DNA of 64,000 nt from sequence record OP595145.1, one strand, 5' to 3'. How positions within the stretch are numbered: position 1 is the stretch's first letter; each line of letters starts with the position of its first letter. The stretch comes from Escherichia phage vB_EcoM_DE16. The notes under the pieces are model-generated. The model did no database searches, was not told the origin of the DNA, and saw only the letters and a program-made list of their open reading frames with translations. The position numbers were made by a program, and so were the translations under genes. This document shows positions 24,333 to 64,000 of this stretch, in pieces.

Positions 24333-24352
24333 GAGGGGGATTTCTCCCCCTC
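24333..24352 (-). other. intergenic GC hairpin
   Basis: GAGGGGGA-TTTC-TCCCCCTC stem-loop between TerD-like gene and endolysin; no clear U-tract. Confidence 0.35.
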
Positions 24353-30959: not shown

Positions 30960-31001
30960 AAGTCTCTCCTATAAAATAGCCTCCCGAAGGAGGCTCATCT
31001 A

Positions 31002-31976: not shown

Positions 31977-32055
31977 TCTTTTCTCCTCTCTTTGCGGGGA
32001 ACTATTCCCCGCTTCATGTGATATATCTTACTCTTTTTAAGAACTATGTCAACAC

Positions 32056-52886: not shown

Positions 52887-53117
52887 AGAGAATGACGCGC
52901 AGGGGCGGTGTTTGTCTCGCGCTCCCGTGTCCCCTCGCCATGTAATAAGAATAACAGATCCAGCCAGGAAAGCAAGCGATTATTTTATCTTTACATTTCT
53001 TTACAAATATATAGCGCCCAGCCTACCGGCGATCAACCTTCCAACCAGCGCCCTGGTATGTTAGCCCCGCCTTTACGCCGTGGGGTGGCGCTTCCTCTTC
53101 TGTATGTAAAACAGTAT

Positions 53118-53160
53118 AAGCCCGATCCCTGGGCTTGTCAAGATTATTTTTTGTTTTCTT
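53118..53160 (+). terminator. terminator-like hairpin at the end of the GC-rich island
   Basis: AAGCCC-GATCCCT-GGGCTT stem then TTTTTTGTTTTCTT 10 nt downstream. Confidence 0.3.
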
Positions 53161-53519
53161 GCCAGGATAGGACACCTAACCAAAAATGCATATCGCCCCG
53201 CGCCCCTGGTGGGATCTTGCTTTCCCCGCCGCCACTGCAAGCCCATAAATAACCATCAGCGAACGGATCAAAGTTTTCTATTTCTTCCACCTTATGATCG
53301 CCCAGGTTGAGAACGGTTTCAACCTTTAAGCCCGTTGCGCTTGCTACCTGGTGCACCGTGCCGCCTTGCCAGCCCAATGAGTGCATAAGGTGTAATGTAG
53401 TATTTGTCATGGTATCGCCCTTTCTTTGTTGTGCGCCCTGGTTGGCGCGGTAGAAAGATGATAGCCGTTTCCTTCATATACAGCAAGCAAAAAGAAAATA
53501 AAAAAGATTGAAAAAGTGG

Positions 53520-53548
53520 TTGACGTTCCTCACCTGGTAGCGTAGTAT
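53520..53548 (+). promoter_or_regulatory. sigma70-like promoter with long leader
   Basis: TTGACG, 17 nt, TAGTAT; ~135-nt leader before ATG 53683. Confidence 0.4.
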
Positions 53549-53682
53549 TCATCTTGTCGAGGGGGCGCGGCACAACGACAATAAACAACAGGAGGGCGCA
53601 ATGTAGGACGGGCAAAGGTGAGGATCTCCATAATCCACCGTCCACCAACAAAAAACATCATTCATCACCTGGAGTTAAAATC

Positions 53683-53880
53683 ATGGCAACATTGCACATA
53701 GTAGCGAAAGCAGGACAAATCAGCGTCGTGGTAAACGGTTTTACTGAGTTCAGTCATCCCCAGGATGATCATGAAACGGTTTTATCTTTTATTGATTCCT
53801 TGTTAGAAATGGGAGTCATTACAGAAGACCAGCACGCTACAAAATGCAAGCGCGTTAATCAAATTGCAGGGATAGAATAA
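53683..53880 (+). CDS. hypothetical early protein
   Basis: Track ORF trimmed to ATG after GGAG; 65 aa. Confidence 0.35.
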   Translation: MATLHIVAKAGQISVVVNGFTEFSHPQDDHETVLSFIDSLLEMGVITEDQHATKCKRVNQIAGIE

Positions 53881-53886
53881 AAAGTA

Positions 53887-53946
53887 TTGACAACAAACAA
53901 CAACCTGATAAGATGTATCACATAGGGCGGGAAGTGGTTTCCCGCT
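53887..53946 (+). promoter_or_regulatory. promoter plus 5'UTR stem-loop cassette
   Basis: TTGACA, 16 nt, TAAGAT; hairpin GGGCGGGAA-GTGG-TTTCCCGC; then AGAGAGATTATCATC-ATG. Confidence 0.5.
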
Positions 53947-53970
53947 CGTAACAGAAGAGAGATTATCATC

Positions 53971-54243
53971 ATGGCATCATATAGCGCAACAATGATCGTA
54001 GCTGGCACAACTGGTAAACCTATGAGCGGTGGCGGATCTTTCGCTAATATCAATATTGACGGGCGTTTATCCCTGGACGCAGCGATTGCCATTGCACGGG
54101 AAACATTTAAAAAAGAATGTAATTTCAATAAGCAAGATTATTTAGGTTTCGCTATTGAAAAAACCGCGCGCTTTGTTGATTATAAAAGCCCGAAAATGAT
54201 CGACACTACACTAAAAGCGCAAGATGTAGCGTTTTTGCTTTAA
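53971..54243 (+). CDS. hypothetical early protein
   Basis: 90 aa; cassette-supplied RBS and ATGGC start. Confidence 0.45.
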   Translation: MASYSATMIVAGTTGKPMSGGGSFANINIDGRLSLDAAIAIARETFKKECNFNKQDYLGFAIEKTARFVDYKSPKMIDTTLKAQDVAFLL

Positions 54244-54246
54244 GGC

Positions 54247-54302
54247 TTGACATTAACGAATAATTTGTTAATATGTTACATAAAGCGGGAATAGTTCCCG
54301 CT
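54247..54302 (+). promoter_or_regulatory. promoter plus 5'UTR stem-loop cassette
   Basis: TTGACA, 16 nt, TAATAT; hairpin AGCGGGAA-TAG-TTCCCGCT. Confidence 0.5.
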
Positions 54303-54319
54303 ATTTGTAAGGTGGTAGA

Positions 54320-54577
54320 ATGTTTTACATCAAATTAAAAGGTCACGTGATCGCGTTCAAAGATAACGCTTTTTACAGATTAGCAAAATATGCGTTAATA
54401 CATCCCCACTATGTTTATATAAGGGGGCGTGATGAAATAAATATCTTTGATCAAACAACATGCGAGAACATCGAGATCCGCAAGGTTGGCGTACGTGACT
54501 ATCGTACATCTTTCTACCCTTGCAAGGATTCAGCAAGTCTTTTTAAAGTATGCCAATTGTTGAAAAAAGGTGGTTAA
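54320..54577 (+). CDS. hypothetical early protein
   Basis: 85 aa; GGTGG RBS. Confidence 0.4.
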   Translation: MFYIKLKGHVIAFKDNAFYRLAKYALIHPHYVYIRGRDEINIFDQTTCENIEIRKVGVRDYRTSFYPCKDSASLFKVCQLLKKGG

Positions 54578-54578
54578 T

Positions 54579-55136
54579 ATGGGCCGCGAATATGTGATCC
54601 AGTCTTGGGTAAAACATGAAGCAGATGATCCGCGCATCATTCCCGATCATCTTATCGATGAATCCACGGGATATAGCGGTGAGCAAATAGGTAACAGATT
54701 AGCACGTAGTAACGGCAACGTAAAAGCGCGTTATGTGCGCCCTGGCTGGCTGGCAAATGGTAACGCTGATTTATCCAGTGCGGAAGATGCGAGCGACGGC
54801 GCGAAAGATAATCCTTTGTACAAAATTGATCCGGCTTTTCGTGTCCTGGATGAATACCCCAGCAAGATAGCGGCGCTCGATCAGGCCCTGGAAAGTAAGC
54901 GCATCACCTGGACCGCTTACAACATGGCAAAAAACGTACTTGATGGTAAATTGATTCAAGCTGAAAGAAAATTAGCCAAAATTGCAGCCATAGCCCAGGA
55001 GGAAGACGAGGAGACAACGGAAGAGGAAGAGTACGAAGAGATCCCGCCGTTGTTGTGTGTTGATGCTTTTCCTGATTATCAGCCGACAGAGGAAGAAAAA
55101 AGGATCGCACTAGAAAACTTTGAAAATAGTCTTTGA
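54579..55136 (+). CDS. hypothetical protein with acidic C-terminal region
   Basis: Track ORF trimmed to ATG after AAAGGTGG; 185 aa. Confidence 0.4.
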   Translation: MGREYVIQSWVKHEADDPRIIPDHLIDESTGYSGEQIGNRLARSNGNVKARYVRPGWLANGNADLSSAEDASDGAKDNPLYKIDPAFRVLDEYPSKIAALDQALESKRITWTAYNMAKNVLDGKLIQAERKLAKIAAIAQEEDEETTEEEEYEEIPPLLCVDAFPDYQPTEEEKRIALENFENSL

Positions 55137-55189
55137 CATATCGCCGCCACTGGCATAATATTTACCACGTAGGGCGGCAATGGTGCCGC
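55134..55189 (+). promoter_or_regulatory. promoter plus 5'UTR stem-loop cassette
   Basis: TTGACA, CATAAT/TAATAT; hairpin GGCGGCA-ATGG-TGCCGC. Confidence 0.5.
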
Positions 55190-55218
55190 TCATAGTGAAA
55201 TTATGCAAGAGGCTTACA

Positions 55219-55314
55219 ATGATTAATAAAGAAAATAGCTTGACGGTTGGAACGATTAACGCTATCATTCTAGCCGTTCCATTTTGGGTTGTAGTAGCGG
55301 CTATTATTTTCTAA
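55219..55314 (+). CDS. small membrane peptide (31 aa), not in supplied ORF track
   Basis: CAAGAGG RBS; MINKENSLTVGTINAIILAVPFWVVVAAIIF. Confidence 0.3.
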   Translation: MINKENSLTVGTINAIILAVPFWVVVAAIIF

Positions 55315-55322
55315 AAATATTC

Positions 55323-55383
55323 TTGACAACGTTTTTTAATCTGATAAGATGTATCACATAGGGCGGCGGAATACTTCCCCGCC
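55323..55383 (+). promoter_or_regulatory. promoter plus 5'UTR stem-loop cassette
   Basis: TTGACA, 16 nt, TAAGAT; hairpin GGGCGGCGGAA-TAC-TTCCCCGCC. Confidence 0.5.
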
Positions 55384-55406
55384 AAAACAAAAAAAAGGGT
55401 AACACA

Positions 55407-55769
55407 ATGAGCAAGCAAATCAATACTATCATGTTTAATCTGGTATCTTTCCGCGATGATATGAAAAATTTACCACGTGAAACGGTTGATATCCATGTTT
55501 CAGCTTATCGCGCCCTTATTGATATGTTACCGCTAAAACGTGATCAACATGCCGCTAATATGATGCTTAATGCTATGCTTAAAAAGATGATTCAAACGGA
55601 TCTTACTCTGGCGTATGAGTATCAAGGGCGCTTATATGCGACTTACAACAAAGCGGTACCTGGTCTGGGAAGTACCGAAGAGTTGCACGGCTTAAACCTG
55701 GATCAAAACACTTGGGATAGTATGCGCCGCGTTATGGTATGGGCCGAAAGCGGTAAAATTTACGAATAA
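55407..55769 (+). CDS. hypothetical early protein
   Basis: 120 aa. Confidence 0.45.
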   Translation: MSKQINTIMFNLVSFRDDMKNLPRETVDIHVSAYRALIDMLPLKRDQHAANMMLNAMLKKMIQTDLTLAYEYQGRLYATYNKAVPGLGSTEELHGLNLDQNTWDSMRRVMVWAESGKIYE

Positions 55770-55775
55770 AAACGG

Positions 55776-55832
55776 TTGACACTGTTTAAACTTCTGGTAT
55801 AGTTTATCACGTAGGGCGGCAATGGTGCCGCC
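55776..55832 (+). promoter_or_regulatory. promoter plus 5'UTR stem-loop cassette
   Basis: TTGACA, 16 nt, TATAGT; hairpin GGCGGC-AATGG-TGCCGCC. Confidence 0.5.
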
Positions 55833-55852
55833 AACAATAAAAGGTTAACATC

Positions 55853-56032
55853 ATGGCTATCATTGCAAAAACTGAGATTATAGGTTTAGATTCGATCCTC
55901 CTGGCTTATGAGGAAACTTTAAAAATGTATGTAGTGACCTATGGTGATTATGTGCGTGAATACGAATACATTGATCTTGCTTTCGAATGTTACATTCGCC
56001 AGGTCAATAAAGCCTATAACGATTATCGTTAA
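55853..56032 (+). CDS. hypothetical small protein (59 aa), not in supplied ORF track
   Basis: AAAGG RBS; ATGGCT start as in other cassette genes. Confidence 0.35.
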   Translation: MAIIAKTEIIGLDSILLAYEETLKMYVVTYGDYVREYEYIDLAFECYIRQVNKAYNDYR

Positions 56033-56051
56033 AAGTTTTAGTCTTATACTA

Positions 56052-56103
56052 TTGACAATGAGTGATAGTATAAGCATAATAACTTTTATCGGGAATACTT
56101 CCC
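56052..56103 (+). promoter_or_regulatory. promoter plus short 5'UTR stem-loop cassette
   Basis: TTGACA, 17 nt, CATAAT; hairpin GGGAA-TAC-TTCCC. Confidence 0.45.
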
Positions 56104-56129
56104 ACTAACCAAAAAGAGAGATTATCATC

Positions 56130-56495
56130 ATGGCTATTAATATCAATGTTTCCGCTTATGCTACCCTGGCTAACACGGCTAAAATTGAATTATCCAGCAT
56201 TGAAGCGGTGCACATTAGCGCCCGTCGCTGGTTTCAACAGTCCTACGGTAACACATATTTTTCTTTAATGGTTGACGTTGAGATCGGCGGTAAACTGATC
56301 GAGGTGGTTAACGTTCCGTTTCAATATGGCTATGGTGATCATTTTGATACCGTCGCCCTGGAAGAATTTAGCAAGGTTATTAATATGGAAGGTAAAGAGT
56401 TTTCACGCGGCGCGTATCTTTCCCGTTTTTGCCGTGACAATGGGATCACTGTATACAGTCATGCGAGCGATGTTAAACGTAAAAAAGATTTATAA
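56130..56495 (+). CDS. hypothetical early protein
   Basis: 121 aa; AGAGAGATTATCATC-ATGGCT. Confidence 0.45.
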   Translation: MAININVSAYATLANTAKIELSSIEAVHISARRWFQQSYGNTYFSLMVDVEIGGKLIEVVNVPFQYGYGDHFDTVALEEFSKVINMEGKEFSRGAYLSRFCRDNGITVYSHASDVKRKKDL

Positions 56496-56501
56496 AAAGC
56501 A

Positions 56502-56560
56502 TTGACAGCACGAATAAAAAGAGTAAACTGTATTACATAGAGAGCGGGAATACTTCCCGC
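56502..56560 (+). promoter_or_regulatory. promoter plus 5'UTR stem-loop cassette
   Basis: TTGACA, 16 nt, TAAACT; hairpin GCGGGAA-TAC-TTCCCGC. Confidence 0.5.
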
Positions 56561-56584
56561 CTCACTGAAAAAGAGATTAATATC

Positions 56585-56824
56585 ATGGCTAAATCAAAAA
56601 TGTTCTTAGGTCACAAAAATAAAACTCATTGGAATGTAAGCCTTTGGATTAATAATGACGAATCATTATATCGGTTGGCGAAAGAATTTATCGCCGCTAA
56701 TACTAATCGTAATGATGCTGCCCGTGATATGATGTTATTCCTGGAACAAACTGGACAAGATAAAACTCCAGACGGTTTCAAGTATAGCACTACAGCGATC
56801 CGCGCCGCGATGGTTGGAATGTAA
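56585..56824 (+). CDS. hypothetical early protein
   Basis: 79 aa. Confidence 0.45.
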   Translation: MAKSKMFLGHKNKTHWNVSLWINNDESLYRLAKEFIAANTNRNDAARDMMLFLEQTGQDKTPDGFKYSTTAIRAAMVGM

Positions 56825-56833
56825 TAAAAACAG

Positions 56834-56893
56834 TTGACAACGTTTAAAATTAGTGTAAGATGTATCACATAGGGCGGGAAGTGGTTTCCCGCC
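56834..56893 (+). promoter_or_regulatory. promoter plus 5'UTR stem-loop cassette
   Basis: TTGACA, 16 nt, TAAGAT; hairpin GGGCGGGAA-GTGG-TTTCCCGCC (same as the 53887 copy). Confidence 0.5.
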
Positions 56894-56914
56894 AAAACAG
56901 AGAGATTAAAGATT

Positions 56915-57142
56915 ATGGCTATCAATATTGTTCGCGTATCCGGCACCGTTGGCACTTCCCAGGTTATTGCAGTTGTAACAAACAAAAAGATTAATGATGT
57001 ATGTGAGATCTTGAATAAGTGGGCTGTTGCTAATTTTGGGGAATATGCAAGCGTCGAGTACATCGAATCCTACCAGGTGCCAACCATCAGCCTAACCGAT
57101 CTCAACGTTGATCGCCTGTTATGCCTGGATGAATTAATCTGA
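56915..57142 (+). CDS. hypothetical early protein
   Basis: 75 aa. Confidence 0.45.
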   Translation: MAINIVRVSGTVGTSQVIAVVTNKKINDVCEILNKWAVANFGEYASVEYIESYQVPTISLTDLNVDRLLCLDELI

Positions 57143-57151
57143 AAAAGATTG

Positions 57152-57207
57152 TTGACACGGGAAAGAAAAAGAGTAAACTGTATTACGTAGGGCGGCAATA
57201 GTGCCGC
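57152..57207 (+). promoter_or_regulatory. promoter plus 5'UTR stem-loop cassette
   Basis: TTGACA, 16 nt, TAAACT; hairpin GGCGGCA-ATAG-TGCCGC. Confidence 0.5.
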
Positions 57208-57232
57208 TCACAACAGAAGAGAGATTATCACG

Positions 57233-57448
57233 ATGGCTAATATCCGTACACTGTTAAAAAATGCAAGTCAAGTTTTATTTTCAGATGACGAGTATTTCAA
57301 TAAAGACATTACAGGCGTAAAAAATCTTAAAGATGTAAAGGATGTGATAGGTATTCGCGGATCTTTACGTAAAGGTGACTACTACGGCAATAAAGTACAA
57401 TATAAATTAAATCAGTCTTATGATTTTACTTTGACAATTATTTCATAA
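57233..57448 (+). CDS. hypothetical early protein
   Basis: 71 aa. Confidence 0.45.
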   Translation: MANIRTLLKNASQVLFSDDEYFNKDITGVKNLKDVKDVIGIRGSLRKGDYYGNKVQYKLNQSYDFTLTIIS

Positions 57449-57454
57449 AACCGC

Positions 57455-57516
57455 TTGCAATCTTAATAAAATAAAGTAAACTGTATTACATCAAGGCGGC
57501 GGAATGGTCCACCGCC
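57455..57516 (+). promoter_or_regulatory. promoter plus 5'UTR stem-loop cassette
   Basis: TTGCAA, 16 nt, TAAACT; hairpin GGCGGCGGA-ATGG-TCCACCGCC. Confidence 0.45.
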
Positions 57517-57540
57517 TAACAAAGAGAAGAGGAAAACACC

Positions 57541-57708
57541 ATGATCACTTTCGCTACCCGTGAAGCCGCTCGCAACGTTGCCCGTAAAGTTAACGCCGCC
57601 AACCTGGGCGCTACGTTTAAAGCACCTGTAAAAGATGAATCAGGGAAATGGATCTTCCCTGGTCTGCGTCATGCTGACAAGTTAGGTACTTTAAGCCTTA
57701 AAAAATAA
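57541..57708 (+). CDS. hypothetical small basic protein (55 aa), not in supplied ORF track
   Basis: AGAGGAAAA RBS; MITFATREAARNVARKVNAANLG... Confidence 0.35.
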   Translation: MITFATREAARNVARKVNAANLGATFKAPVKDESGKWIFPGLRHADKLGTLSLKK

Positions 57709-57711
57709 TCG

Positions 57712-57749
57712 TTGACTTTTCGTTATAGCGCCTTATAATGGGCGCTATA
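57712..57749 (+). promoter_or_regulatory. sigma70-like promoter with -10 box inside a perfect palindrome
   Basis: TTGACT, 16 nt, TATAAT; inverted repeat TATAGCGCC / GGCGCTATA brackets the -10. Confidence 0.45.
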
Positions 57750-57782
57750 GAGAAGAGAAACCACTACTAACAAGGAAACATC

Positions 57783-58004
57783 ATGATCACTTTCGCTATT
57801 GTCGCCGTTGTCGCTGGTCAGGTTTACGTAAACGATACATTCACCACAGAAGACAAGGCCGCAGGAGACATAACCGCCGTTTACAATAAGTGCAAGGCAG
57901 TAGAAAGGATGTTAGCGCCTTGTATGTTAATGAGTGAACGCCAGGACGGGATAACAGTGTTTACTAACATTGAAACAGGGTACCAAATGGTAGTAACAAA
58001 ATAA
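57783..58004 (+). CDS. hypothetical early protein
   Basis: 73 aa; hydrophobic N-terminus MITFAIVAVVAG. Confidence 0.4.
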   Translation: MITFAIVAVVAGQVYVNDTFTTEDKAAGDITAVYNKCKAVERMLAPCMLMSERQDGITVFTNIETGYQMVVTK

Positions 58005-58007
58005 AGC

Positions 58008-58065
58008 TTGACACGGATTTAATTTTCAGTAAACTGTTACACGTAGGGCGGGAATAGTTCCCGCT
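58008..58065 (+). promoter_or_regulatory. promoter plus 5'UTR stem-loop cassette
   Basis: TTGACA, 16 nt, TAAACT; hairpin GGGCGGGAA-TAG-TTCCCGC. Confidence 0.5.
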
Positions 58066-58082
58066 AAAAAGAGAGAAAGACC

Positions 58083-58436
58083 ATGAAAGCACAAAATGCA
58101 ATTAAAGAGTACATCCTTGCCGCTATCGATTTTAATGATTACGGTATTACAACCGAAAAAGAGAAGATCGCGGAATTGATGCGCCGTTTTAATTCAGAGT
58201 ACTGGTACCCTGATAACCAATCACGTTTTAATTATAGTATTGTTAAAGCACTTGCATCATGGTTACAAGGTTTGCCATCAGATATCAATATCGCTTTCGA
58301 ATATTGGGAAATTGATCGCTTGTTAACATCCTGGGGATACATTAAAGAGAATAGCAACGATGATAAAATCCAACGAGAAAGGGAAAATTATTGGCTTTAT
58401 ATTGCAGGCGTGATCCTTGCTTGCTCTTATGAATGA
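58083..58436 (+). CDS. hypothetical early protein
   Basis: 117 aa. Confidence 0.45.
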   Translation: MKAQNAIKEYILAAIDFNDYGITTEKEKIAELMRRFNSEYWYPDNQSRFNYSIVKALASWLQGLPSDINIAFEYWEIDRLLTSWGYIKENSNDDKIQRERENYWLYIAGVILACSYE

Positions 58437-58442
58437 TAAACC

Positions 58443-58496
58443 TTGACAATTTTACAAAACAGTTTAAATTAACAATATAGCGGCAATGGTGCCGCT
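58443..58496 (+). promoter_or_regulatory. promoter plus 5'UTR stem-loop cassette
   Basis: TTGACA, 16 nt, TAAATT; hairpin AGCGGCA-ATGG-TGCCGCT. Confidence 0.5.
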
Positions 58497-58515
58497 CATA
58501 TGAAGAGGAAACAAA

Positions 58516-58662
58516 ATGAATACATCTAATCGCGCAGAAAAAATTCAATCTTCCAAGATCCGCAAGGCCTGGAACGAGGAAGTGATCCGCAAAGGCGACA
58601 AGCGCAATAAAACAAAGCGCGGGAAGAGTGACAAATATAATTGGATGGATTTAGAGGATTAA
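58516..58662 (+). CDS. hypothetical small basic protein (48 aa), not in supplied ORF track
   Basis: GAAGAGGAAA RBS; followed by a strong terminator. Confidence 0.35.
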   Translation: MNTSNRAEKIQSSKIRKAWNEEVIRKGDKRNKTKRGKSDKYNWMDLED

Positions 58663-58668
58663 CATAAC

Positions 58669-58696
58669 AAGGGCGCACCAAGCGCCCTTTCTTTTT
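58669..58696 (+). terminator. rho-independent terminator
   Basis: GGGCGC-ACCAA-GCGCCC hairpin followed by TTTCTTTTTAT. Confidence 0.7.
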
Positions 58697-58717
58697 ATAT
58701 GTAGAGGATAAACAAAG

Positions 58718-58903
58718 ATGACTTTAAACGAGCTTAAAACAGCCTACAACGCAACGTTAAAAATAGCCGTGCGTTACCGTGATGCGTACGGTTTTATCGC
58801 GCAGGGCGTGATCCTGGGCTTTTCTGACGATGGTTTGATCTATGTTGATGCACATCATAACAAGGTAAAACCTGAAAACGTCATTAGCATAAAATATCTT
58901 TAA
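58718..58903 (+). CDS. hypothetical early protein
   Basis: 61 aa; GAGGA RBS. Confidence 0.4.
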   Translation: MTLNELKTAYNATLKIAVRYRDAYGFIAQGVILGFSDDGLIYVDAHHNKVKPENVISIKYL

Positions 58904-58909
58904 AAGTGG

Positions 58910-58969
58910 TTGACACCATAACCGGACCTGTTAAACTGTATTACATCAGGCGGGGAATAGTTCCCCACC
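58910..58969 (+). promoter_or_regulatory. promoter plus 5'UTR stem-loop cassette
   Basis: TTGACA, 16 nt, TAAACT; hairpin GGCGGGGAA-TAG-TTCCCCACC. Confidence 0.5.
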
Positions 58970-58988
58970 ATACAAAAAGGTAAATATT

Positions 58989-59195
58989 ATGATCACAACA
59001 AAACAAGAAAAAATTATTACAGACATTGCCGCAGTAGCCGCTATTGCTATTATTGGTACCTACTATGACACCGCGCGTCCTTCCTCCTTGCATGAGGTCG
59101 CCGCCGTTGCATCAGTTGGCGTACTGTTTTACGTTGGTAAACGCTATTTATCACCAATGATTAACAAGCTGACACCGTGGAAAAATAAAGGTTGA
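58989..59195 (+). CDS. small membrane protein
   Basis: 68 aa; two hydrophobic segments. Confidence 0.4.
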   Translation: MITTKQEKIITDIAAVAAIAIIGTYYDTARPSSLHEVAAVASVGVLFYVGKRYLSPMINKLTPWKNKG

Positions 59196-59250
59196 TCCTG
59201 TTTTATATTGTGTTATAGTTATCGTGTAGGGCGGCAATGGTGCCGCGCCC
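59192..59250 (+). promoter_or_regulatory. promoter plus 5'UTR stem-loop cassette
   Basis: TTGATC, 16 nt, TATAGT; hairpin GGCGGCA-ATGG-TGCCGC then GCCCTTTT. Confidence 0.45.
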
Positions 59251-59266
59251 TTTTGAGGATGCAATC

Positions 59267-59551
59267 ATGAGTAAAGCTAACACCGTGTTAATGTTTTCCC
59301 TAGTTAATGATGCCGCTCACTTGTCCAACATGACGCAGGAGGGTAACACATTAACGGCAACATTCACCAATAAGCTTGACCGAGTGATCATCATCTCACT
59401 GAAAACAGTTAGTAAAGGCTTTTACTCGTTAGCTTATCATTGGATCACCGATACCGATGAGACAAGCCAGGACTATAGCGCCCCTTTCCCTGAATCAATG
59501 GCACGGGAGATCATCGCCGCCGTTGTAAATGATGGTTTGTTTACTGCATAA
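59267..59551 (+). CDS. hypothetical early protein
   Basis: Track ORF trimmed to ATG after GAGGA; 94 aa. Confidence 0.4.
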   Translation: MSKANTVLMFSLVNDAAHLSNMTQEGNTLTATFTNKLDRVIIISLKTVSKGFYSLAYHWITDTDETSQDYSAPFPESMAREIIAAVVNDGLFTA

Positions 59552-59566
59552 AAATTTAGAAAAGGC

Positions 59567-59623
59567 TTGCAATAATTTTGAGATAGTGTATATTTAATTC
59601 ATAGGGCGGCGGGAATAGTTTCC
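59567..59623 (+). promoter_or_regulatory. promoter plus degenerate 5'UTR stem-loop cassette
   Basis: TTGCAA, 16 nt, TATATT; decayed hairpin GGGCGGCGGGAATAGTTTCC. Confidence 0.4.
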
Positions 59624-59646
59624 AAAGCAAACGAGAGGATTACACG

Positions 59647-59766
59647 ATGAGCAAGTACACAGTAGAATACACGGTAGAAAATCCGGCAGTATCCGAAGGT
59701 AAAAAGATGACATTTGCCATCAGTATAATCGCTTTCGTTGTCACTATCTTATCAATCATCTTATAA
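59647..59766 (+). CDS. small membrane peptide (39 aa), not in supplied ORF track
   Basis: GAGAGGA RBS; C-terminal TM segment; coordinates approximate. Confidence 0.3.
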   Translation: MSKYTVEYTVENPAVSEGKKMTFAISIIAFVVTILSIIL

Positions 59767-59776
59767 GGTGCACACC

Positions 59777-59938
59777 ATGAAAACAACAGACATTATCAAA
59801 GAGATCGCCCTTGCCGCTGGCGTTGAAGTCGAGGAAGTGATCGCGCTCAATCTTACAGAAAACGATCTGCGCAACTATGAAGCGGAAAGCGTGAAAGCAA
59901 GCGGCGCGGTCCTGGTATATGATCCGGCTAACAAGTAA
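59777..59938 (+). CDS. hypothetical small protein
   Basis: Track ORF trimmed to ATG after AGGTG; 53 aa. Confidence 0.35.
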   Translation: MKTTDIIKEIALAAGVEVEEVIALNLTENDLRNYEAESVKASGAVLVYDPANK

Positions 59939-59947
59939 GGGGATAAC

Positions 59948-60058
59948 ATGAATCCGAAAGATATGCAAGCATGGAAAGGGTACGACGATCTAAGCGCCTT
60001 GCGCAATAAGTCAAGCCGTAACCTTAGACGGTTGGAAGCAAAGAAAAAGAAAAAATAG
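59948..60058 (+). CDS. hypothetical small basic peptide (36 aa), not in supplied ORF track
   Basis: AAGGGG RBS; Lys-rich C-terminus. Confidence 0.3.
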   Translation: MNPKDMQAWKGYDDLSALRNKSSRNLRRLEAKKKKK

Positions 60059-60059
60059 T

Positions 60060-60115
60060 TTGACAAGTCCGCCTAGTCTGATAATATATATCTTGTAGGG
60101 CGGCAATGGTGCCGC
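60060..60115 (+). promoter_or_regulatory. promoter plus 5'UTR stem-loop cassette
   Basis: TTGACA, 17 nt, TAATAT; hairpin GGGCGGCA-ATGG-TGCCGC. Confidence 0.5.
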
Positions 60116-60136
60116 TCACAAGAAGAGAGAAAAATC

Positions 60137-60421
60137 ATGAAAATCACAAAAAGCCTAACTAATTATGCAGCACGTCGCGGATTATGTTTAACCGTTGAAA
60201 ACTTAGGGAAAGAAGACTTTTTGTGTTTTTGGGAGCTTGAAAATGATTGCGAGTGGATGTTTTCTTATTCTATCTGCGAAGATCAAAACGGTTGTTTGTT
60301 AACCTGGCGCGGTAATATCTATTTACCGGAAGAAATTAAAGAAGAGTTACCAGGTACGATCATGACAGAGAGACAGCTTAAGGAAATGATTAATTTTGTA
60401 GGGCAAAACATTAAAAAATAA
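60137..60421 (+). CDS. hypothetical early protein
   Basis: 94 aa. Confidence 0.45.
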   Translation: MKITKSLTNYAARRGLCLTVENLGKEDFLCFWELENDCEWMFSYSICEDQNGCLLTWRGNIYLPEEIKEELPGTIMTERQLKEMINFVGQNIKK

Positions 60422-60422
60422 T

Positions 60423-60483
60423 TTGACAGCACGCAAACAACGTAGTAAAGTTTACCACATAGGGCGGCGGAATGGTCCACCGC
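60423..60483 (+). promoter_or_regulatory. promoter plus 5'UTR stem-loop cassette
   Basis: TTGACA, 17 nt, TAAAGT; hairpin GGCGGCGG-AATGG-TCCACCGC. Confidence 0.5.
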
Positions 60484-60506
60484 TCACAACAGAAGAGAAA
60501 CAAATC

Positions 60507-60677
60507 ATGATCCCGACTATGTTTTATGTATCGCGCAAAGGTCACAATATTTTTTGGTCTGAAGATTTAAATGAAGCTATGACGTTTGCCCGTGATCGTG
60601 TTGCTATCGGTGGCGTTAACATCACCGTAACCGATGAAAACGGCATTGAATACTATAACGGCGACAATGAAGAGTAA
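60507..60677 (+). CDS. hypothetical small protein
   Basis: Track ORF trimmed to ATG downstream of the cassette; 56 aa. Confidence 0.4.
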   Translation: MIPTMFYVSRKGHNIFWSEDLNEAMTFARDRVAIGGVNITVTDENGIEYYNGDNEE

Positions 60678-60684
60678 TCAACAA

Positions 60685-60702
60685 GGCGGGATTAATCCCG
60701 CC
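60685..60702 (+). other. intergenic palindromic hairpin without promoter boxes
   Basis: GGCGGGAT-TA-ATCCCGCC perfect palindrome. Confidence 0.4.
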
Positions 60703-60721
60703 TGTATTAAAGGGTAATATA

Positions 60722-60859
60722 ATGAAAACTTTCAACGCAACAGCCTCGACAATTGGTTATATTATTACAGTGCAAGCCGTTGACCTGGTAGCGGCAGCAA
60801 ACAAGATTAAAAAGATGATCCCAACAGGCAGCGAATTTTCCGTTTGGGAAGTAAAATAA
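60722..60859 (+). CDS. hypothetical small protein (45 aa), not in supplied ORF track
   Basis: AAAGGG RBS; MKTFNATASTIGYIITVQAVDL... Confidence 0.3.
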   Translation: MKTFNATASTIGYIITVQAVDLVAAANKIKKMIPTGSEFSVWEVK

Positions 60860-60862
60860 AGC

Positions 60863-60923
60863 TTGACAATAATTTGTTATCTAGTAAAGTGTATTACGTA
60901 GGGCGGGGCAATGGTGCAACGCC
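60863..60923 (+). promoter_or_regulatory. promoter plus degenerate 5'UTR stem-loop cassette
   Basis: TTGACA, 15 nt, TAAAGT; hairpin GGGCGGGGCAATGGTGCAACGCC. Confidence 0.4.
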
Positions 60924-60942
60924 TACTAATGAGGGTAGAATC

Positions 60943-61047
60943 ATGTTAGAGAAAATTTTCACGGTTGCAGTGGTTGGCCTGGCGTTATCGGTTGGAGTAG
61001 TTGCAACTATGGCTAATATGATCCTATCTTCCCACGGTATCGGTTAA
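60943..61047 (+). CDS. small membrane peptide
   Basis: Track ORF trimmed to ATG after GAGGG; 34 aa hydrophobic. Confidence 0.3.
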   Translation: MLEKIFTVAVVGLALSVGVVATMANMILSSHGIG

Positions 61048-61048
61048 G

Positions 61049-61273
61049 GTGAAACAAATGATCACGAATAAGACAGGTAAAACGGAATTTTTACGCAGCT
61101 TGCAAGTTGGTAAACCTGAGATTTGGCATTGTACTAAATCCGCGCATAATGAAATGAAAGATTTTACCGCTACTTTACAACGTGTTAAAATATCTATCAC
61201 ACAGAAAAAAGCCTTGTTAGTAGTAGAAAACGAGATCCCGCAAACTATTATTATTGTCGAGCGTACAGCATGA
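61049..61273 (+). CDS. hypothetical early protein
   Basis: 74 aa; AAGGTG RBS. Confidence 0.4.
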   Translation: MKQMITNKTGKTEFLRSLQVGKPEIWHCTKSAHNEMKDFTATLQRVKISITQKKALLVVENEIPQTIIIVERTA

Positions 61274-61656
61274 AAACAGAAATCATTATTGAAATCATCA
61301 ACGGCTATAAAGAAGCCTTTATTTTTGCTGAATCAGCAAGGGATCATGAAGGTAATTTTATTGATAACTTAGACGATTATGATTTTTCTCCTAGCGCAGA
61401 TCAACGGATCGCCCAGGATGTAACAGCCTTTATTAATGCTAATCTTGCCGCTATCTCTGAGGCAATGAGCGACGGCGCAACAGCCAACCAGATCGGGAAT
61501 GATTTACATTTTACCCGTAACGGTCACGGCGTAGGCTTTTGGGATCGCCCTGAAATATACACCACTAACACAGCCAACCGCCTAACCAATGCAGCTAAGT
61601 TTATGCCGAACGTGTCGGCTTACATTGGTGAAGATAATTTGATTTATATTGAATAA
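61270..61656 (+). CDS. hypothetical early protein
   Basis: 128 aa; ATGA coupling. Confidence 0.45.
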   Translation: MKTEIIIEIINGYKEAFIFAESARDHEGNFIDNLDDYDFSPSADQRIAQDVTAFINANLAAISEAMSDGATANQIGNDLHFTRNGHGVGFWDRPEIYTTNTANRLTNAAKFMPNVSAYIGEDNLIYIE

Positions 61657-61662
61657 AAAGTA

Positions 61663-61718
61663 TTGACACAGATCGCCAGTGTGCTAATATTTACCACGTA
61701 GGGCGGCAATGGTGCCGC
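61663..61718 (+). promoter_or_regulatory. promoter plus 5'UTR stem-loop cassette
   Basis: TTGACA, 16 nt, TAATAT; hairpin GGGCGGCA-ATGG-TGCCGC. Confidence 0.5.
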
Positions 61719-61739
61719 TCCCCGAAAAAGGTAAACATT

Positions 61740-61931
61740 ATGAAAACCATCTCCTACCTGGAATCGAATAACATGTTTTTTGCGCCCGTTGATGAAATCA
61801 TCGAAGCATTAAACAACGAGGAAGGGATCAAAGGTTTATCTTATAGCCAACTTTTAGGAATGGTTGCAGCAAATGAAGAGCTTGCTTACTATGTTGAAAA
61901 TTTTGATGAAGCTGTAATCTTTACAAAATAA
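61740..61931 (+). CDS. hypothetical early protein
   Basis: 63 aa. Confidence 0.4.
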   Translation: MKTISYLESNNMFFAPVDEIIEALNNEEGIKGLSYSQLLGMVAANEELAYYVENFDEAVIFTK

Positions 61932-61934
61932 TCC

Positions 61935-61991
61935 TTGATCTAATCTCTTAGATAACTTATATTTAATGCGTAGGGCGGCAATGGTGCCGCC
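61935..61991 (+). promoter_or_regulatory. promoter plus 5'UTR stem-loop cassette
   Basis: TTGATC, 17 nt, TATATT; hairpin GGGCGGCA-ATGG-TGCCGCC. Confidence 0.5.
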
Positions 61992-62009
61992 GATAATGAG
62001 GAAAGTAAA

Positions 62010-62309
62010 ATGGAAACTATCGCTATTGTTACCGTAGAAAAACTGGTTGTTGGTGATGTATTCGCGTTAATGGTGCCTAACAGTAGCAAGCTGGGCGCTT
62101 ATGAAGTGATGGATCATAAAAATGAATCATTTGGCGACGGTTGCACAATGGCGGTAAAATCTTTAAAGGATGGAATCATCCGTCAAGCTAATTGGCACAA
62201 AGGGAATCAAGTCGGATTAATATCAGCTAATTTCTTGCCAGAAGAGCAAACGTTAGACCAACTATCAGGCGGTAAGACGTTAGCCGAACTACTGGAAACA
62301 GCGATCTAA
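62010..62309 (+). CDS. hypothetical early protein
   Basis: 99 aa. Confidence 0.45.
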   Translation: METIAIVTVEKLVVGDVFALMVPNSSKLGAYEVMDHKNESFGDGCTMAVKSLKDGIIRQANWHKGNQVGLISANFLPEEQTLDQLSGGKTLAELLETAI

Positions 62310-62317
62310 TCAACAAA

Positions 62318-62333
62318 GGGGCGGCAACGCCCC
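62318..62333 (+). other. intergenic GC hairpin (second family), no promoter boxes
   Basis: GGGGCG-GCAA-CGCCCC. Confidence 0.4.
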
Positions 62334-62353
62334 ACATCAGAAAGGAAAAGATT

Positions 62354-62590
62354 ATGAGTATTGCAACAGTATTAACCGCCGTTAAAACCGCTGAATCATC
62401 CGGCTTGCATGTTGAGCTTATAGATCAACCAGGTGGCGATCTCCTTGTCCAGGTTTACCCGCCGAAAGTAGGAGATGATTATTATTGGTGCTATTCTGAT
62501 ACGTTCGAACAAGTAGACACGAAAGCGATCACAGCTTTTATTTTAAAAGCCATTGAAGAAAATAACTTTCATCATAACATCAAGCAATAA
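62354..62590 (+). CDS. hypothetical early protein
   Basis: 78 aa. Confidence 0.45.
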   Translation: MSIATVLTAVKTAESSGLHVELIDQPGGDLLVQVYPPKVGDDYYWCYSDTFEQVDTKAITAFILKAIEENNFHHNIKQ

Positions 62591-62599
62591 ACCATAAGC

Positions 62600-62615
62600 G
62601 GGGCGGTAACGCCCC
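62600..62615 (+). other. intergenic GC hairpin (second family), no promoter boxes
   Basis: GGGGCG-GTAA-CGCCCC. Confidence 0.4.
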
Positions 62616-62645
62616 ATTAAACGCAATAGGAAGAGGCTAGAAAGC

Positions 62646-62930
62646 ATGAAAAAGATGATCGCAGTAGTTGCCCTGGTTGTTGGTATTAACGCGCCTGTAA
62701 TGGCTAATGAGTTGCCTGAATCCATCACGTTAACCGATATCAACGCAATAAACCGGATCGGTGTTAATTATCGCCTATGCCTTGCCGCTAAAACTTTCCA
62801 GGATGGCACGACAGAATACCACGGATTCGAGGGTATCCGCTGCGGTGAGCTTGCACGCGACCTTAAGGAAGATCCAGACCTTGAGGCCATACCGATGACC
62901 GTAAACGGTAAAGCCCAGGTAAACCGCTAA
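62646..62930 (+). CDS. secreted protein with signal peptide
   Basis: 94 aa; MKKMIAVVALVVGINAPVMA. Confidence 0.45.
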   Translation: MKKMIAVVALVVGINAPVMANELPESITLTDINAINRIGVNYRLCLAAKTFQDGTTEYHGFEGIRCGELARDLKEDPDLEAIPMTVNGKAQVNR

Positions 62931-62932
62931 CC

Positions 62933-63067
62933 ATGAGAAAGGTAATCATCACAATGGGGATCGTAGTAGCAACGCTGGCGCTTATTCCCTTCCTGGTTGA
63001 ATATGTGCTGATTAATGTTGTCCTGGTAGTCAGTGACCTATTGGAAACGGTTGGCAACTGGTTTTAA
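62933..63067 (+). CDS. small membrane peptide (44 aa), not in supplied ORF track
   Basis: ATG 2 nt after upstream stop; two hydrophobic segments. Confidence 0.3.
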   Translation: MRKVIITMGIVVATLALIPFLVEYVLINVVLVVSDLLETVGNWF

Positions 63068-63075
63068 GATAAATA

Positions 63076-63105
63076 AACAGGGCTTGTTTTTGTCCTGTTT
63101 TTTGT
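63076..63105 (+). terminator. weak terminator-like hairpin
   Basis: AACAGG-(12-nt loop)-CCTGTT then TTTTTTG. Confidence 0.3.
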
Positions 63106-63242
63106 TATACTTATTGAACGGGCGGCACCTGGGAGCAGGTGAAGATAATCACCGGACGACCCCGCTATATATTGATAGCTAACATCTATCAAACAACAAA
63201 ACATCAAAGGAATAAACTATCAAATCTTTACAATCCTACCTA

Positions 63243-63301
63243 TTGACACCGGATCACGCTTACATTATCATTTATCACGTAGGGCGGGAATGTTTCCCGC
63301 C
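63243..63301 (+). promoter_or_regulatory. promoter plus 5'UTR stem-loop cassette
   Basis: TTGACA, 15 nt, CATTAT; hairpin GGGCGGGAA-TGT-TTCCCGCC. Confidence 0.5.
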
Positions 63302-63319
63302 TGATTTAGGAGTCATATC

Positions 63320-63553
63320 ATGATCGAACAAATTAAAAGCACTAAACCAAATGTTAACGGTAATGTTTCTCACTTTATCGGGGATAATGAAAGAGGTACA
63401 CCGTACGCCGCCGTAACCGTTCAACCGAACGGGGATTATTGGTTTACCGTGTACGGATCTTACTCTTTTGGACGTTCGGCACATGATAAGATCTTGCAAG
63501 TGGTTAAGCCTACTGGGAAGAATATCACAGCAGAAAAATTTTATAAAAAATAA
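63320..63553 (+). CDS. hypothetical early protein
   Basis: 77 aa; AGGAG RBS. Confidence 0.45.
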   Translation: MIEQIKSTKPNVNGNVSHFIGDNERGTPYAAVTVQPNGDYWFTVYGSYSFGRSAHDKILQVVKPTGKNITAEKFYKK

Positions 63554-63554
63554 C

Positions 63555-63615
63555 TTGCTTTATAGCTCTTGTTAACTTATAGTTATTGCGTAGGGCGAGC
63601 AATACAGCAAGCCCA
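63555..63615 (+). promoter_or_regulatory. promoter plus degenerate 5'UTR stem-loop cassette
   Basis: TTGCTT, 17 nt, TATAGT; decayed hairpin GGGCGAGCAATACAGCAAGCCC. Confidence 0.35.
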
Positions 63616-63631
63616 CAAAGAGGAAAAGAAG

Positions 63632-64000
63632 ATGAGCAAATCAGCAATTAAAGCAGTTGAAAAAGCGCAAGAAGTGATCGCAACGTCAACCACTGGCGCA
63701 AAGGTTAATCTCGTTGGTTATCTGACAGATGAAACTATCCGTAAAAATTGGCATAATGCTGATTTACTGGCTTGCTTATTGATTAATAGTGTCGCTAATG
63801 CTTTCCAGTGTGAAACAGCCGAGAGCCTGGAGGAAAACTTGTTTGATAATATGGATCAAGCCATTGAAACCTATATACAATCAAACCTGGATAGCTGGAA
63901 CAGTAAAACATGGCCCGACAATTTACGCGATACAACTGATCAACTGATCCGCCTTGCCCTGATGGTTGAACGCGATAACGTTCACAACCGCACAAAGTAA
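63632..64000 (+). CDS. hypothetical early protein
   Basis: Track ORF trimmed to ATG after AGAGGAAAAG; stop at window end. Confidence 0.4.
   Translation: MSKSAIKAVEKAQEVIATSTTGAKVNLVGYLTDETIRKNWHNADLLACLLINSVANAFQCETAESLEENLFDNMDQAIETYIQSNLDSWNSKTWPDNLRDTTDQLIRLALMVERDNVHNRTK

Follow-up and report, generated by a model that had tools for sequence, protein, structure and literature searches.

Promoter-less GC-rich hairpins at probable seams between one-gene modules in the early region of Escherichia phage vB_EcoM_DE16

We analyzed a stretch of 64,000 nucleotides (nt) of Escherichia phage vB_EcoM_DE16 (sequence record OP595145.1), hereafter the window, and characterized three GC-rich palindromes, termed hp1, hp2, and hp3, that lie between small genes of its early region. 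The segment at 53.9–64 kb is a plus-strand run of approximately 34 small open reading frames (ORFs). Nearly all of them are preceded by a spacer of 74–97 nt with a promoter cassette and a hairpin, in the order TTGACA, 16–17 nt, TAnAnT, ~7 nt, (G/A)TAGGGCGG...CCGCC hairpin, and ribosome-binding site. Such promoter-plus-hairpin spacers are the "cassettes" of an earlier, sequence-only reading of this DNA, and intergenic spacers occupy 23% of 53881–64000. In contrast to the cassette spacers, those holding hp1, hp2, and hp3 measure 44, 44, and 55 nt, respectively. hp1 separates g56 from g45, hp2 separates g99 from g78, and hp3 separates g78 from g94; these flanking genes fall into PHROG families with unknown function. 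The g56-hp1-g45 transcript is presumed to start at the g56 cassette promoter, and the g99-hp2-g78-hp3-g94 transcript at the g99 cassette promoter. The coordinates are summarized in Table 1.

At 60000–64000, the identity was 97.8% with Escherichia phage dw-ec and 94–98% with ESCO13, phAPEC8, Schickermooser, and dozens more Phapecoctavirus genomes (Stephanstirmvirinae), and fainter similarity reached Justusliebigvirus and rV5-like Vequintavirus. Judged by these identities, the window is from a Phapecoctavirus, a phAPEC8/ESCO13-like coliphage.

Table 1 Features at and around the three promoter-less hairpins (window coordinates; aa, amino acids; bp, base pairs).
Feature	Position	Strand	Remarks
hp1	60684–60703	+	8-bp stem; AGGCGGGA-UUAA-UCCCGCCU in RNA; AGGCGGGA-TTAA-TCCCGCCT in DNA
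hp2	62318–62333	+	GGGGCGGCAACGCCCC; GGGGCG-GCAA-CGCCCC, GNRA loop; left junction of the g78 module
hp3	62600–62615	+	GGGGCGGTAACGCCCC; GGGGCG-GUAA-CGCCCC in RNA, GNRA loop; right junction of the g78 module
One-gene module (hairpin, leader, g78, trailer)	62318–62599	+	282 nt; present, absent or relocated in relatives
g56	60507–60677	+	56-aa ORFan; stop codon and TAATCAAYAA, then a hairpin in every relative examined
g45	60722–60859	+	45-aa ORFan 3′ of hp1; own promoter cassette in phita32 and IMGVR_3300010279
g99	62010–62309	+	99-aa ORFan 5′ of hp2; restricted to Phapecoctavirus
g78	62354–62590	+	78-aa ORFan; phrog_20600, unknown function
g94	62646–62930	+	94-aa ORFan 3′ of hp3; signal-peptide-like N terminus
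g56 cassette promoter	60423–60451	+	TTGACA-17-TAAAGT, 10/12 (consensus scan)
g99 cassette promoter	61935–61963	+	TTGATC-17-TATATT, 9/12 (consensus scan); cassette hairpin 61974–61991
g34 promoter-cassette hairpin	60898–60926	+	GTAGGGCGGGGCAATGGTGCAACGCCTAC; alternative site of the g78 module in EmilieFrey-type phages
First canonical terminator 3′ of hp2/hp3	63075–63100	+	Hairpin and T tract

A check of the sequence bore out the coordinates of all three palindromes. The sequence-only reading had drawn hp1 with a 2-nt TA loop; the palindrome itself (60685–60702, GGCGGGATTAATCCCGCC) stands, but such a loop is impossible and the fold is an 8-bp stem closed by UUAA. The accompanying statement that the three elements sit between genes without −35/−10 boxes or U-tracts agreed with our consensus scan, in which no promoter was found 5′ of hp1, hp2, or hp3 and no T tract was found on the plus strand. 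Near hp2, the best −10-like box (TCTAAT, 62305–62310) had no −35 partner and was rejected as a hidden promoter. The sense-strand tails following hp1–hp3 were GTATTAAAG, ACATCAGAA, and ATTAAACGC, with 1–3 T per 9 nt. The hairpins start 6 nt (hp1), 8 nt (hp2), and 9 nt (hp3) after the stop codons of g56, g99, and g78, and stand 18, 20, and 30 nt before the ATG of g45, g78, and g94, respectively. The distance from hairpin to start codon, 18–30 nt, compares with about 18–25 nt for the cassette hairpins. The RNA hairpins were predicted to have energies between −14 and −16 kcal/mol; against shuffles, z was −3.6 for hp1, −4.3 for hp2, and −2.1 for hp3.

Perfect GC hairpins, counted as perfect stems of at least 6 bp with at least five G-C pairs and a loop of 3–8, were compared with a null of dinucleotide shuffles. 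The whole window contained 32 of them versus 1.85 ± 1.3 in the shuffles (17-fold), and the segment 53881–64000 contained 19 versus 0.62 (30-fold). All 19 of these early-region hairpins lie in intergenic spacers. The shuffles thus ruled out a chance origin of the palindromes. The other 13 are scattered over 3505–50002, a region of minus-strand genes; on the minus strand, several form hairpins with GNRA or UUCG loops (e.g., 24333–24352 and 30978–30995), and at least one (31994–32012) resembles a minus-strand promoter cassette.

The bare hairpins proved to be kin to those of the cassettes. hp1 has the arms GGCGGGA/TCCCGCC, and identical arms occur in the cassette hairpins at 56873–56893 and 63283–63301. 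In phita32, g45 stands behind a full cassette, TTGACA-16-TAAAGT, followed by GCGGGAA-TAC-TTCCCGC and the same g45 leader as in the window; a cassette also lies upstream of g45 in IMGVR_3300010279, where its hairpin has collapsed. On the hp2 side, the block GGCAACGCCCCAC(A/C)TC, ribosome-binding site, and ATGAGTATTGC, which makes up the 3′ arm and leader, was invariant in four contexts. It belongs to a bare hairpin in the window and in UPEC06, where the upstream genes differ, and to a promoter-cassette hairpin in EmilieFrey and phita32, where it supplies the 3′ arm opposite a 5′ arm GGGCG(T/G). Alignment with full cassettes hence revealed a sequence relationship for hp1 and hp2. Because arms and leaders are common to bare hairpins and promoter cassettes, hp1–hp3 would not constitute an independent family, contrary to the distinct second family that the sequence-only reading had claimed. 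Its other proposal, that these sites separate the hairpin from the promoter, was supported: the g45 and g78 leaders occur both bare and behind full promoter cassettes in relatives. The cassette hairpins themselves also vary. That of g56 (60462–60483) is GGCGGCGGAATGGTCCACCGC, GCGGGAAATGGTTTCCCGC, or GCGGCAATAGTGCCGC depending on the phage, while promoter and leader stay alike, and hairpins thus appear to be swapped within otherwise conserved cassettes.

We compared the g78 module among relatives. hp2 and hp3 are direct repeats, identical at 15/16 positions, that flank the module. In the alignment, the site was filled in the window and ESCO13 and empty in B15 and TSP7_1, which read g99-TAATCGACAA-GGGGCGGCAACGCCCCC-ATTAAACGC-g94 without g78; the single hairpin of the empty site has its left flank as in hp2 and its right flank as in hp3. 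A junction query of the phage collection listed 60 records, in 47 of which the g99–g94 site was filled and in 13 of which it was empty. The latter represent 10 distinct phages (B15, ZCKP1, ukendt, anhysbys, vB_EcoM_01, 536P1, ETEC-TG, TSP7_1, vB_Ec-G1, and KKP_3264). In vB_EcoM_01 (PP129558), the segment 4118–4414 includes a stretch of N, and the junction between the 3′ end of g99 and its hairpin is present twice, which is most likely an assembly artefact. Schickermooser, PsgM04F, SKA64, phiWec181, and phiWec186 were filled but 19 nt shorter: ACCATAAGCGGGGCGGTAA between TAA repeats is deleted, which removes the 5′ arm and loop of hp3. The 5′ arm of hp3 has decayed in phita32 and IMGVR_3300010279. 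A query with g78 against IMG/VR returned three loci only.

In EmilieFrey, phita32, and IMGVR_3300010279, the module lies between g45 and a 34-aa gene, where it splits the g34 cassette hairpin, which is intact in the window. On the left of the relocated module, the 5′ part of the cassette is joined to GCAACGCCCC-ACATCAG, and on the right, ...AAGCGGGGCAGTAACG is joined to CCC-ATTAATGAGGGTAGAATCATG. At both genomic sites, the module is therefore bounded by reciprocal hybrid hairpins, as expected of a single crossover between a circle (g78 and one hairpin) and a resident hairpin. The description "decayed cassettes", which the sequence-only reading had offered, fits less well than recombinant seam hairpins of one-gene modules. 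In rV5-like phages, the hp3 position before g94 is taken by a different hairpin, AGGCGG-TTACCG-CCGCCT, beside the conserved flank TTAAACG. In phita32 (2770–2830), the window's g94 leader (ATTAAACGCAATAGRAAGAGGATA) stands before another small gene (MKQKLIDA...). Exchange therefore also separates leaders from their ORFs, and besides the hairpins, the ribosome-binding site and start codon are places where mosaic boundaries fall.

The hp1 site was examined in approximately 10 contexts. A hairpin followed g56 and TAATCAAYAA in every one of them, in seven stem/loop variants and with four different downstream sequences. The variants were GGCGGGA-TTAA, GGCGGGAA-GTG, GGCGGGG-GAGTATT, GGCGGGG-AGTA, the bulged hybrid GGCGGGgAA-TAC-TTCCCGCC, GGCGGCA-AGAA, and GGCGGCA-ACAA. 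The bulged hybrid is that of TSP7_1, where a truncated g45 comes next. RNAalifold analysis of the hairpins after g56 indicated three pairs with compensatory changes.

The arrangement recalls the promoter-early stem-loops (PeSLs) of the T4-like phages RB49/phi1, PST, and nt-1, which consist of a sigma-70 promoter and a GC stem-loop upstream of ORFans in hyperplastic regions (Arbiol et al. 2010, PMC2839356; Comeau et al. 2014, PMC4122927). In RB49, ORFan192 is flanked by two PeSLs, in place of which phi1 has one chimeric PeSL, and mini-circles were proposed as the intermediates of shuffling (PMC2839356). hp1–hp3 likewise are intergenic GC-rich stem-loops upstream of ORFans in a hyperplastic early region. 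As with ORFan192, two elements flank g78 where it is present and one chimeric element stands where it is absent, and the same gene is found in different contexts. The g78 junction sequences are compatible with integration of a mini-circle made of the ORFan and its element. Seventeen neighboring cassettes carry a sigma-70-like promoter. The neighboring cassettes fit the PeSL subclass whose stem-loop comes immediately after the −10 box, and one (57724–57749) fits the subclass overlapping the −10 box. In contrast to PeSLs, hp1–hp3 lack the promoter half. Their junctions share ~16–17 nt of stem-loop sequence, compared with ~100 bp in PeSLs, and the crossover points fall within the stem-loop and not in an AT-rich part. 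The lineage also differs (Stephanstirmvirinae/Vequintavirinae), and the elements would be analogous, not homologous. At 57712–57749, a near-consensus promoter (TTGACT-16-TATAAT) has its −10 TATAAT in the loop of a 9-bp hairpin, TATAGCGCC-TTATAATG-GGCGCTATA; this hairpin is kept in Schickermooser and B15 and fits the same −10-overlapping subclass.

Here, we propose that hp1–hp3 are copies, without a promoter, of the GC-rich stem-loop found after almost all early promoters. In each seam hairpin, the stop codon, A-rich spacer, and 5′ arm would come from the trailer of the module on the left, and the 3′ arm, ribosome-binding site, and start codon from the leader of the module on the right; crossovers between seam hairpins would insert, delete, or relocate single small genes. 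The hp2/hp3 junctions look as if a circle composed of the gene and one hairpin had integrated through one crossover within the arm G(C/T)AACGCC, and a mini-circle of this kind would carry one hybrid hairpin GGGGCGG(C/T)AACGCCCC. Joining a gene trailer straight to a leader hairpin would leave no promoter between them and hence a promoter-less hairpin within an operon. Recombination would proceed via short stem homology, possibly aided by the palindrome. In the early polycistronic mRNA, very stable tetraloop stems would then stand between a stop codon and the next ribosome-binding site, and the folded hairpins would serve as decay barriers or insulators, not terminators; cassette hairpins would play a like role at the 5′ end of primary transcripts. 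We regard this explanation as a whole, namely module-seam hairpins related to cassette hairpins with a stabilizing or insulating role at the RNA level, as moderately probable.

The RNA part of this proposal draws on several features. Seven distinct hairpin types had GNRA or UNCG loops when read in sense and none did when read in antisense, hp2 and hp3 were predicted to be more stable on the plus strand than on the minus strand, and pairing at the g78 leader was kept with two different 5′ arms. The sense-only loops, the compensatory changes or kept pairing, and the different hairpin at the same place before g94 favor a role of the sense transcript, and the constant spacing between hairpin and start codon points in the same direction. 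Most likely, the hairpins would act in the polycistronic early mRNA as insulators or barriers to decay, and an RNA-stabilizing role is plausible; 5′-terminal stem-loops are known to counter RNase E. A ribosome terminating at a stop codon 6–9 nt ahead of a hairpin would melt it, and an effect on upstream translation like that described for repetitive extragenic palindromic (REP) elements is possible. RNase III cleavage, also suggested by the sequence-only reading, is improbable. This enzyme requires about two helical turns of double-stranded RNA (~20 bp or more), and the stems of hp1, hp2, and hp3 have 8, 6, and 6 bp with folds that showed no extension. A search for curated RNA families gave no match to Rfam 15 covariance models at E ≤ 1 in 53000–64000.

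Two groups of known hairpins are close to such a role. Intercistronic tetraloop hairpins of T4, reportedly described by Tuerk et al. in 1988, and the 5′/3′ stabilizer stem-loops of E. coli mRNAs, said to have been characterized by Emory, Bouvet and Belasco in 1992, share with hp1–hp3 short GC stems, extra-stable tetraloops, a position between cistrons or at transcript ends, and the lack of a U tract. Unlike them, hp1–hp3 coincide with recombination junctions and are known here from sequence alone. The REP elements of enterobacteria and bacterial interspersed mosaic elements (BIMEs), reportedly treated by Newbury et al. in 1987 and by Liang, Rudd and Deutscher in 2015, are likewise intra-operonic GC-rich palindromes near stop codons, can protect upstream mRNA or affect upstream translation, and are prone to recombination. 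However, REP elements are ~35 nt long, imperfect, built on a consensus, and chromosomal, whereas hp1–hp3 are perfect phage palindromes of 16–20 nt.

Other explanations share parts of this evidence. Were the hairpins neutral recombination scars, short GC homology at the crossovers would rebuild the palindrome automatically and no RNA role would be needed. The mapping of the g78 module junctions to hairpins, the bulged hybrid in TSP7_1, and the deletion or decay of hp3 in at least seven viable phages all suit this idea, which we nevertheless judge unlikely: stable tetraloops are confined to the sense orientation (seven types to none), g56 is followed by a hairpin in all contexts examined despite the seven stem/loop variants, and another hairpin occupies the same place before g94 in rV5-like phages. 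The opposite emphasis was that of the sequence-only reading, in which the hairpins form a dedicated RNA stability or processing family and overlap with indel junctions only incidentally. Although GNRA loops, high stability, the place between stop codon and ribosome-binding site, and the common occurrence of bare hairpins in Vequintavirus early regions agree with it, arms and leaders are common to promoter cassettes, the g78 module begins and ends in hairpins at each of two genomic sites, and stems of 6–8 bp are too short for RNase III. A dedicated family is thus rather improbable. A bolder version of the seam proposal holds that a bare GC stem-loop of 16–20 nt is by itself a sufficient and preferred recombination site, recognized by a structure-specific enzyme of the phage or host, so that lytic coliphages would possess an integron-like system in which single-gene circles are excised and then reinserted at any hairpin of the family. 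We consider it speculative and quite improbable. Integron attC arrays do resemble the early region, being mostly promoter-less single ORFs bounded by palindromes, with cassettes excised as circles and reinserted at like sites. The attC sites, however, are 57–141 nt long and imperfect, have conserved R/L core sites, and need the IntI integrase, whereas hp1–hp3 are, by sequence only, perfect and 16–20 nt long, and no integrase is known here, although no genome-wide integrase search was made.

The hairpins might also terminate transcription, either as leaky attenuators on the sense strand or as intrinsic terminators of antisense transcripts, since on the minus strand the A-rich 5′ flank reads as a tail rich in T. 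The consensus scan scored all three as terminator-like on that strand; the flank TAATCAACAA recurs at hp1 and hp2 (three matches versus 0.33 expected) and precedes a true terminator in Schickermooser. Moreover, the RB49 PeSL stem-loop cut expression of a lacZ reporter about as strongly as rrnB T1 (PMC2839356). Against this, the sense tails hold only 1–3 T in 9 nt, no T tract was present at hp1–hp3 or at any orthologous hairpin examined, the minus-strand hairpins of hp2 and hp3 are weaker, 53.9–64 kb contains no minus-strand genes or convincing promoters, and several bare hairpins of Vequintavirus lack an A-rich flank. Sense-strand intrinsic termination was rejected on the missing T tract, and we consider a terminator function of either kind very unlikely. 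Intrinsic terminators do have a GC-rich hairpin of similar size, and about one-third of the unrelated viral contigs with the identical 16-mer have a T tract after it, but hp1–hp3 lie within operons and directly before a ribosome-binding site. The flank shared with a true terminator is the basis of a side idea, in which bare hairpins would have arisen from a terminator hairpin recombined with a downstream leader hairpin, losing the T tract and the promoter. The predicted ancestor, g99 or g56 followed by a T-tract terminator, was not found: g99 occurs only in near-identical Phapecoctavirus contexts, and all g56 contexts examined are bare. Least credible of all is that the palindromes are protein-binding sites, be it in RNA for nut/boxB-like antitermination or in DNA as targets of a structure-specific nuclease or recombinase. 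Short GC stems closed by GNRA-type loops do resemble boxB, and the PeSL authors speculated on a protein recognizing GGGG...CCCC, but no candidate protein was identified, and loops and stems vary freely among orthologous sites. A lambda-type nut site was rejected, as the early region contains no boxA (CGCTCTTA-like) near the hairpins or elsewhere and the loops are 4 nt, not a GNRNA pentaloop.

Several observations weigh against the seam-hairpin explanation. hp3 is dispensable for viability, since it is deleted in five phages and decayed in two. A few extra bases distinguish the empty-site alleles from the filled ones, and either an insertion or a deletion could underlie the event. In a crude test, 62% of the ends of BLAST high-scoring segment pairs (HSPs) were intergenic versus 23% expected; there was no enrichment at hairpins over intergenic positions alone (30% versus 46%), a comparison confounded by cross-matches between paralogous cassettes. 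The hairpin specificity of the crossovers therefore rests on the junction sequences, not on statistics. The identical 16-mer was present in more than 120 unrelated viral contigs of IMG/VR; it is a generic sequence, and these matches are therefore uninformative on origin. Whole-hairpin swapping, not selection on pairing, could explain the compensatory changes after g56. Finally, no transcript data for this phage group were found in the literature searched, so the RNA role is inferred only.

The surroundings of the hairpins held further structures. At 58663–58717, a T-tract hairpin, AAGGGCGC-ACCAA-GCGCCCTT TCTTTTTAT, stands directly before a ribosome-binding site with no promoter after it. This layout looks like an attenuator, and the next gene would need read-through; the GGGCGC hairpin of this site also occurs without a T tract in relatives, at a position just beyond the end of the window. 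A spacer of 252 nt without genes (63068–63319) contains the first canonical terminator of Table 1, which is followed by a −10-like box (TATACT) and, at ~63119–63165, by a structured segment rich in GC. Similar sequence is present in UPEC06, no Rfam match was obtained, and the spacer may encode a small non-coding RNA. In addition, records named as phages of Campylobacter, Pseudomonas, Acinetobacter, Serratia, or Klebsiella (e.g., MG065650 and OR584014) were 92–100% identical to E. coli Phapecoctavirus here, and some of these host labels are probably wrong.

No account of hairpins of this kind in rV5-like or phAPEC8-like phages turned up in the literature searched, and the papers on rV5 and Certrevirus name just promoters and ARNold terminators. 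On the present comparisons, hp1–hp3 may best be described as promoter-less seam hairpins of PeSL-like gene shuffling, unreported in this phage group. For annotation, such hairpins should not be labelled terminators. The g78 module exists in three natural states, namely filled between g99 and g94, empty, and inside the hairpin of another cassette, in dozens of sequenced and culturable coliphages. Several of these belong to the BASEL collection. The three states offer a direct experimental handle on the mini-circle model and allow the effect of a hairpin on the downstream gene to be compared with and without a promoter of its own. If the explanation is true, a stem-loop of ~16 nt alone would suffice as an exchange point, which narrows the possible mechanism, and PeSL-type modular shuffling would extend past the T4-like phages to the phAPEC8, phi92, and rV5 groups.

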